Positions 34,990-35,430 of a stretch of DNA of 64,000 nt are shown here, one piece after another. The notes below the pieces were generated by a model. The model saw only the letters and a list, made by a program, of their open reading frames with translations. It made no database searches and had not been told where the DNA came from. The first letter of the stretch is position 1, and the number at the start of each line of letters is the position of its first letter. Where the stretch lies: NCBI GenBank assembly GCA_965203325.1, contig OZ241875.1:3296001-3360000 (forward strand). Direction: 5' to 3'. Both the position numbers and the translations under genes were made by a program. Source of the stretch: a bacterium (lineage in GTDB: Bacteria; UBA8248).

Positions 34990-35430
34990 TCAAAATGGAA
35001 TTTCTTCCCCCACAACGCCAGCCGCCACAGCCGCCGTCTCGGGGTGCGCGCCGTTGCCGTTGCCATTTCCGTTCCCGTTCACCTTGTCGAGGAACTGCAC
35101 GCGTCCCCCCGGCGCGATGAGGATCTCGGTCGAGAACCGATCCGAATCCTCGTCATCCTTCTTCCAGCGGCGGGTCTGGAGCTTGCCGGCCACGTAGACC
35201 AGGCGGCCCTTCTTCGCGTGCTTTTCGAACATATCGACCAGGCCGGGCTGGAAGGTCACGACCCGGTGCCACTCGGTCTTGTCCACCCGCTCGCCGGACT
35301 GCTTGTCGATGTAGCCCTCATCCGTCGCGATGGACAGGTTGGCGACGCGACCTCCGCTGGTGAGGTGGTTGACGGTGACGTCGGCGCCGAGACGCCCGAT
35401 CAGTTCCGCTCTGTTGAGTCCGAATGCCAT
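34990..35430 (-). CDS. ssb: intact single-stranded DNA-binding protein (inner copy)
   Basis: Full OB fold, NG-repeat linker and EEIPF tail. Confidence 0.95.
   Translation of the reverse strand: MAFGLNRAELIGRLGADVTVNHLTSGGRVANLSIATDEGYIDKQSGERVDKTEWHRVVTFQPGLVDMFEKHAKKGRLVYVAGKLQTRRWKKDDEDSDRFSTEILIAPGGRVQFLDKVNGNGNGNGNGAHPETAAVAAGVVGEEIPF

Follow-up and report, generated by a model that had tools for sequence, protein, structure and literature searches.

A probable mobilizable element inside an island ssb gene and the mismatched core in its own ssb copy

Results

The element and the gene that it splits

The stretch of DNA that we analysed (64,000 nucleotides, called the window below) contains an element of 31.9 kb at window positions 9060-40994, which is bounded by the 11-bp direct repeat ATGTTCGAGAA. 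The element is inserted at codons 69-72 of the ssb gene of a related genomic island, an insertion that truncates this gene after residue 72. It also carries an intact ssb of its own; below, the split gene is called the outer ssb and the element-borne gene the inner ssb. The features of the locus are:

8862..9070, + strand: 5' part of the outer (interrupted) island ssb, including the core (Pfam SSB, 4.7e-12; tblastn, residues 3-74)
9060..9070, + strand: attL core ATGTTCGAGAA, exact repeat; the presumed overlap TCGAGAA is 9064-9070
9093..10490, + strand: tyrosine integrase of the element (Pfam Arm-DNA-bind_3, 9.1e-18, and Phage_integrase, 1.5e-13)
28857..31826, + strand: TrwC-type relaxase-helicase of the element backbone (Pfam), kept in the related G001, G002, G003, G004b and G007
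32702..37891, no strand given: part of the backbone that surrounds the inner ssb, with homology to the island family (self-BLAST, 85-92% identity; genome BLAST)
34990..35436, - strand: inner (element-borne) ssb, intact, inverted relative to the split ssb (Pfam SSB, 7.9e-24; 148 aa; C-terminal EEIPF)
35222..35232, - strand: inner pseudo-attB core ATGTTCGAAAA, which differs at window 35224
40995..41005, + strand: attR core ATGTTCGAGAA, exact repeat
40995..41243, + strand: 3' part of the outer ssb (Pfam SSB; tblastn, residues 68-148)

The integrase gene lies at one end of the element and encodes both an arm-binding and a catalytic domain, and the target gene is split at the repeat, as in integrative elements of the lambda/P4 type. 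The element encodes its own TrwC relaxase without VirB4 or coupling-protein genes, and Pfam detected no mating-pore (T4SS) family genes among its scanned ORFs. Judged by these genes, it is probably an integrative and mobilizable element with a P4-type tyrosine integrase. The integrase-side arm (window 9071-9140) contains the sequence CGACAAT twice, with a spacing of about 30 bp; these copies, conserved in G001 and G002, are possible arm-type binding sites of the integrase.

The cargo comprises a RES-Xre pair, a type I CRISPR-Cas system and a 665-aa ankyrin protein; the other genes include those for a YAcAr protein, a TPR protein and a hydrolase (all by Pfam). The cas set (window 12784-23278) encodes Cas6, Cas3, a large subunit, Cas7, Cas5, a Cas4-Cas1 fusion and Cas2, and the array has 33 repeats of 37 bp with 32 spacers, none of which has a match in the genome or in the retrieved loci. 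Among nine related elements only the one in the window has a complete type I CRISPR-Cas system, with distant cas-like matches in G004d and G008. The alpha/beta-hydrolase gene (window 39420-40484) has a 92.8% identical chromosomal copy at 2992304-2993368.

The GC-rich block at 28.8-37.9 kb is homologous to an island family present in about ten copies in the 4.39-Mb genome (genome BLAST). Its part at 32702-37891 also matches, in inverted orientation, the flanks of the insertion at 7948-9071 and 40995-43389 (self-BLAST, 85-92% identity). The match to both the island family and the insertion flanks reveals that the element backbone is a cousin of its target. We considered whether the integrase had produced the inner ssb by an inversion that involved a second ssb and either attL or attR, and rejected this origin: undoing either inversion gives no simpler map, and the relatives in five other genomes have the same nested layout.

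Relative to ordinary islands (e.g., at 726-735 kb in the window's genome, G000), the GC-rich backbone (window 28848-37891) is circularly permuted. The ssb block precedes the relaxase in the islands and follows it in the element, and the two ends of the GC-rich block fall into a single gap of about 100 bp in the island map. The arrangement gives the impression that a circular relaxase-ssb unit has received the low-GC part, with the integrase, attP and the cargo, as an insertion. Logan contigs of four runs, compared with window 28000-41500, are short and interrupted where island genes are repeated; two of the four runs contain the element-specific low-GC parts without differences and may represent the source sample.

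The interrupted island

A typical copy of the island encodes tandem integrases, TrwC, ssb and defence genes. The roughly ten paralogous islands in G000 each have an ssb, and in most of them TrwC and two P4-like integrases in tandem are also present; two of the copies, at 1966-1989 kb and 4237-4262 kb, combine a coupling protein and a relaxase with an adjacent, pseudogenised relative of the element integrase. The interrupted island contains a low-GC block (window 44000-57000) with Vsr, a C5 cytosine methylase, HNH, a two-HATPase protein and DUF2971, which looks like a defence islet.

The initial annotation regarded the interrupted island as a helper whose ssb the element destroys and replaces. 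The helper role is unsupported. Transfer genes of the interrupted island were found neither in the window nor in the 20 kb upstream of it, where tandem integrases and defence-like genes are located. VirB4 (PF03135, PF12846) has no hit in the 95%-complete, single-contig genome, and its only two coupling-protein (T4CP) hits are both elsewhere; the VirB4 and mating-pore genes that mark a conjugative element (ICE) were thus not found for the host of the insertion. As for replacement, the element does split an ssb and does carry an intact one, but the latter is a gene of the conserved relaxase-ssb backbone, and the genome has nine other island ssb copies in addition to a housekeeping ssb. Since the inner ssb is a backbone gene common to the island family, replacement is at most a side effect.

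The crossover core and its inner copy

The left copy of ATGTTCGAGAA follows ...ggtcgat of the ssb and is followed by acatatttta, that is, by AT-rich foreign DNA (acatattttataaag...). At the right copy, the foreign DNA on the left side reads ...tttgtgaatac, and on the right side gcacgcgaag follows, with which the ssb 3' part continues up to 41243. Joining the outer halves gives the reconstituted target gtcgatATGTTCGAGAAgcacgcgaag, as the initial annotation had read it. In the deduced attP, the inverted repeat ATGT/ACAT flanks TCGAGAA, and an alignment of 20 junctions places the exchange between ATGT and ACAT. It is reasonable to take the 7-bp TCGAGAA as the overlap of strand exchange, although this assignment is deduced from the aligned junctions.

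The inner ssb contains the corresponding sequence on the minus strand at 35212-35238, GTCGATATGTTCGAAAAGCACGCGAAG, the sole match in the window at up to three mismatches, where shuffled sequences give an expectation of 0. It is identical to the reconstituted target at 26 of 27 bases, and with these near-identical flanks it would be an otherwise good target. The sole difference, at window 35224, changes GAG to GAA, both of which encode Glu; the silent change that the initial annotation had pointed out is thus confirmed.

A change of this kind is not rare within the window's genome. There are 35 differences between the inner and the outer ssb over 429 aligned bases, and at least one difference falls into 43% of all 7-base windows of the pair (40% when phase-matched). 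The genome has ten intact island-type ssb copies and one housekeeping ssb (at 418.8 kb). Four of the island-type copies (at 729, 983, 2070 and 3840 kb) have GAG at the core codon, and six have GAA, namely the inner copy and those at 1241, 1836, 1986, 2576 and 4240 kb. GAA is a common standing allele and no special change. As it is the majority allele among the free copies (5 of the 9 other intact paralogs), the single difference, with the window taken alone, is not beyond chance (p ~0.4-0.6). The initial annotation had itself noted that a single synonymous change could be fortuitous.

The genome also contains an orphan attR (G000:C1:593409-593965), in which an ssb 3' half starts at the same codon with the core ATGTTTGAGAA, next to 270 bp that are 81% identical to the right end of the element. 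No 5' half that matches it was found in the genome. This second split ssb with a related element end shows that the ssb site was used twice in this genome.

Relatives of the integrase and their inner ssb copies

The genome collection contains 373 relatives of the integrase, and we examined the loci of 79 of these. At 11 of the 79, the integrase is immediately preceded by an ssb 5' half with its end at residue 73-77; these include all eight of the loci listed at 83-93% identity that cover the integrase N-terminus. The cores at the 11 loci are ATGTTCGAGAA or the variants TTT-GAG, TTC-AAG, CTT-GAG and, once, TTT-TAA. Three further loci have an ssb fragment that ends at residue 40-48, a second site, and 57 of the 79 have no ssb within 10 kb.

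Searching for ssb in ten of the relatives' genomes and fetching whole elements yielded nine elements with an inner ssb from six genomes: the one in the window (G000), those in G001, G002 and G003 (congeneric with the window's genome), four diverged elements in G004 (a-d), and one in G007. Both ends are known for seven of the nine. All nine have the inner ssb in the orientation opposite to that of the split ssb, and they share a gene order of TrwC (where present) ... YAcAr, two small genes, ssb and two more conserved genes. Excluded as unscored were G005 (integrase, with no backbone or ssb in 36 kb), G006 (runs off the contig) and G008 (rearranged). G008 (L238-L242) has an attL of the family and, at a distance of 77 kb and in inverted orientation, an attR-like junction; several island backbones separate the two.

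Pattern searches among the kin of the window's genome (44 genomes of the order, 51 of the class and 51 of the phylum) and in the order of G007 (49 genomes) returned only elements that were already known. A metagenome scan for the attR junction gave 20 loci and no real junction among them, the hits being chance matches or natural ssb genes with AAC before ATG.

The inner core across the family

No inner copy in this family has the 7-bp crossover sequence of its own element: in all nine scored elements, the inner copy differs from the presumed overlap by at least one base, and the differences always include positions 3-7. The inner cores are:

G000: GAA
G004a, G004b, G004c: GAA
G001, G003: GAG-CGG (AAG>CGG, Lys to Arg, K72R)
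G002: CTC-GAA-CGC, where its own att reads TTT-GAG-AA
G007: CTG-ACC-AAG (GAG>ACC)
G004d: consensus GAG, a mismatch only since attL reads AAG; attR is missing

The G004d element counts against self-avoidance, in that its inner ssb keeps the consensus codon and mismatches only its own attL.

Among the free intact paralogs, 23 of 39 match the local overlap and 16 do not. The matching copies number 4/9 in G000, 5/9 in G001, 0/4 in G002, 2/4 in G003, 3/3 in G004 and 9/10 in G005; in G007, 1 of 17 sampled copies (of 21) matches. The contrast between inner copies (9/9 mismatched) and free copies (16/39) gives a Fisher p of 0.0023 when pooled and 0.004 when stratified by genome. Multiplying the chance of a difference in a 7-base window over the nine pairs gives 1e-4 (6e-5 phase-matched); the probability becomes 0.006-0.009 if G004 is counted once and 0.011-0.015 if G001 and G003 are merged. 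Under the strictest count, with three allele lineages and a pool that is 41% mismatched, p is ~0.07. The family-wide excess of mismatches, with p from ~0.004 to ~0.07 depending on how independence is counted, is suggestive. The comparison of the codon inside and outside such elements, which the initial annotation had proposed, gives a divided answer: the inner copies are consistently mismatched, but GAA itself is also common in free copies.

The differences are concentrated in the overlap, at 17 of 63 sites compared with 317 of 3237 gene-wide (a 2.8-fold enrichment), and the 120 bases around it are the most conserved part of the ssb gene. Synonymous sites at the neighbouring codons 67 and 68, on the other hand, vary just as freely. 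Some of the inner alleles are rare in their surroundings. In the G004/G005 clade, GAA occurs in 3 of 4 inner but in only 1 of 13 free copies (p = 0.022), and in G001-G003 the R-type allele is found in 2 of 17 free copies, one of which (L106) is probably inside a degenerate element. K72R (CGG) is present in the ordinary tandem-integrase islands L113, L180 and L183 as well, which makes it a segregating allele and not an invention of the elements.

The backbones of the four diverged G004 elements are only 86-95% identical, so these elements are not recent duplicates. In the ssb tree, which is based on a short gene, the inner copies group with local free copies and not with each other. This suggests that the mismatch arose, or was retained, several times. 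GAA occurs in none of 16 occupied junction sets, compared with 11 of 39 free alleles, which agrees with, but does not prove, a need for G at that position. In the G007 element attL and attR differ at position 2 of the overlap, and some heterology in the overlap may be tolerated.

A sister family at a second ssb site

A sister clade of the integrase (~68% identity) is found in G009 (L172-L178, L263-L264) and G010 (L185-L190). It inserts at ssb residues 30-34, with the core GTCGCAAA (G009) or CGCGTCGCCAAC, and its elements have the same backbone with an inverted inner ssb. Only one G009 element is fully resolved; its inner ssb and the reconstituted target agree without a difference over the 8-bp identity block, the 8 bases that precede it and the 18 that follow. 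The inner copies in G010 differ at one or two synonymous bases in the core. The consistent mismatch of the first family does not recur here, and this G009 element reveals that a perfect inner target can be tolerated in the sister family. The same G009 element holds a fragment of a site-1 integrase that is 95% identical to the integrase in the window, which suggests a recent swap of integrases between the two ssb sites.

Discussion

The initial annotation took the silent change in the inner ssb as a possible sign of self-immunity. The mismatch of the core in all nine elements of the family speaks for this idea; the single GAA in the window is unremarkable, and the sister family keeps a perfect inner target. 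We see about an even chance that selection against matching inner targets explains the mismatch in the family, with GAA being a pre-existing allele that passes the filter. The backbone (relaxase, YAcAr, ssb and neighbours) derives from the island family, and with such a backbone the element necessarily carries a near-copy of its own target. If the inner target were perfect, then the integrase, acting on the circular excised form, could recombine the inverted inner site with attP; the segment between them would be inverted, and attP and the ssb would both be split. Elements that recombine with themselves would be weeded out, and the survivors would be those whose ssb allele mismatches overlap positions 5-7. 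If this were the case, the GAA in the window would be no new adaptive mutation but a common allele of the island ssb pool, and the inner ssb would serve the DNA processing of the element itself and would not be a designed replacement of the destroyed gene.

An alternative explanation is that the inner ssb is an ordinary, inherited member of a set of polymorphic paralogs, and that GAA and K72R are neutral alleles without an effect on fitness which the inner copies have by chance. This is quite possible, if somewhat short of probable. GAA is found in 5 of the 9 free copies in the window's genome, the synonymous sites of codons 67 and 68 are equally variable, R-type alleles reside in ordinary islands, the G009 element at the second site tolerates a perfect inner target, G004d retains the consensus GAG, and the most conservative count leaves p at ~0.07. 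However, chance has to accommodate nine mismatched inner copies out of nine where 23 of 39 free copies match, inner alleles that are locally rare (GAA in 1/13 free copies in G004/G005, the R type in 2/17 in G001-G003), and a 2.8-fold enrichment of differences at the overlap within the most conserved 120 bases. A different possibility is that GAA and K72R spread in the island ssb genes as protection from interruption, and that the copy in the element merely shares them. The frequency of mismatched alleles among free copies (16/39) and the distribution of GAA (0 of 16 occupied junction sets compared with 11 of 39 free alleles) would fit such an escape. Unoccupied perfect cores also exist, four of them in the window's genome. 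We consider the escape improbable: in G005, 9 of 10 cores are perfect despite the presence of element junctions, so the frequency of the allele does not track the element; the overlap sequence at a junction is set by attP anyway; and the site resembles an ordinary synonymous polymorphism.

About as improbable is a designed replacement, in which the element carries an ssb to compensate for the one that it destroys in a conjugative helper. The intact inner ssb in all nine elements that retain the backbone (both ends mapped in seven) and the truncation of the interrupted gene after residue 72 are what such a design would leave behind. However, the inner ssb sits in the backbone block common to the island family and is thus ancestral and not acquired for compensation, the housekeeping ssb and nine further intact ssb genes of the island type are available, the genome has no VirB4 hit and the interrupted island no transfer genes (window and 20 kb upstream), and the G005 element has the integrase and no ssb in 36 kb. 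Selection against matching inner targets could also be part of a wider pattern, in which the overlap, lying in a conserved block of ssb codons, is a self/non-self mark between related islands in conflict, and the silent or conservative recodings (GAA, K72R) are both required by the elements and spread as escape alleles of the islands. We regard this extension as unlikely; if it were true, it would explain why about 40% of the free island ssb copies no longer match the overlap.

The argument for self-avoidance depends on how strictly the integrase requires identity in the overlap. The initial annotation invoked the rule that lambda-type integrases need identity across the 7-bp overlap. Such a requirement is described for most tyrosine recombinases (PMC2817482; PMC10111431); it is not universal, and the account in PMC2817482 presents IntDOT as an exception. 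The integrase family studied here resembles lambda-type integrases in its arm-binding and catalytic domains, the 11-bp identity block, and the presumed 7-bp overlap with inverted core sites. Unlike under the strict lambda rule, attL and attR of the G007 element differ at overlap position 2, and strict identity is not assured for this family.

The idea of self-avoidance is already in print. The helper-embedded PICI 11capE sits in the capsid gene of prophage 50icd, and the same logic was proposed for this satellite, which carries a homolog of its target capsid gene (PMC10111431). The element in the window resembles 11capE, as described there, in that it sits in a gene of another mobile element, which is not restored via attP, and brings a homolog of that gene with it (PMC10111431). 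In the 11capE case the differences are extensive and the partners are a satellite and a phage (PMC10111431), whereas here the partners are two relaxase-bearing islands, the difference is down to one synonymous base, and nine elements could be counted. The ssb gene is a recurrent target of tyrosine-recombinase islands, as is also seen for GInts, which are described as having a four-gene recombination operon, ginABCD, and as inserting at the end or the start of ssb without inactivating it (PMC5385486). Unlike GInts, the element in the window has a single integrase, and its insertion interrupts an island-borne ssb in mid-gene (codons 69-72). In our literature search, which covered few subscription journals, we found only GInts at ssb ends and no ssb-splitting mobilizable element, nor a one-base synonymous self-mark; the literature on sponge symbionts yielded nothing specific. 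The observation in the window is ordinary by itself, and it is the family pattern that is suggestive.

Two other situations are comparable in part. Streptococcal integrative mobilizable elements have a relaxase and no mating pore and are nested in genes of conjugative elements; they use other integrases and other targets, and we know of none that carries a copy of its own target. In the hosts of free-standing homing endonucleases, the genome's own copy of the recognition site is slightly, and often silently, changed. There self-protection involves a nuclease and double-strand-break repair and not site-specific recombination.

If the mismatch is functional, it would represent a minimal form of self-avoidance by an element that integrates site-specifically, with one synonymous base marking its own copy as "self". 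It would also mean that islands in uncultured, apparently sponge-associated bacteria parasitise each other's replication and transfer genes. If it is not functional, the case calls for caution, because one silent difference between paralogs that have diverged by 8% is uninformative alone.

Integrase relatives are found in MAGs whose labels name widely separate lineages, namely Alpha- and Gammaproteobacteria, Binatia, Thermodesulfobacteriota, Vicinamibacteria and Nitrospinaceae. Many of the runs that contain part of the attL region, most of them holding only a small share of it, are listed as sponge metagenomes. Together, these labels would suggest that the integrase family has been exchanged across phyla within one habitat.
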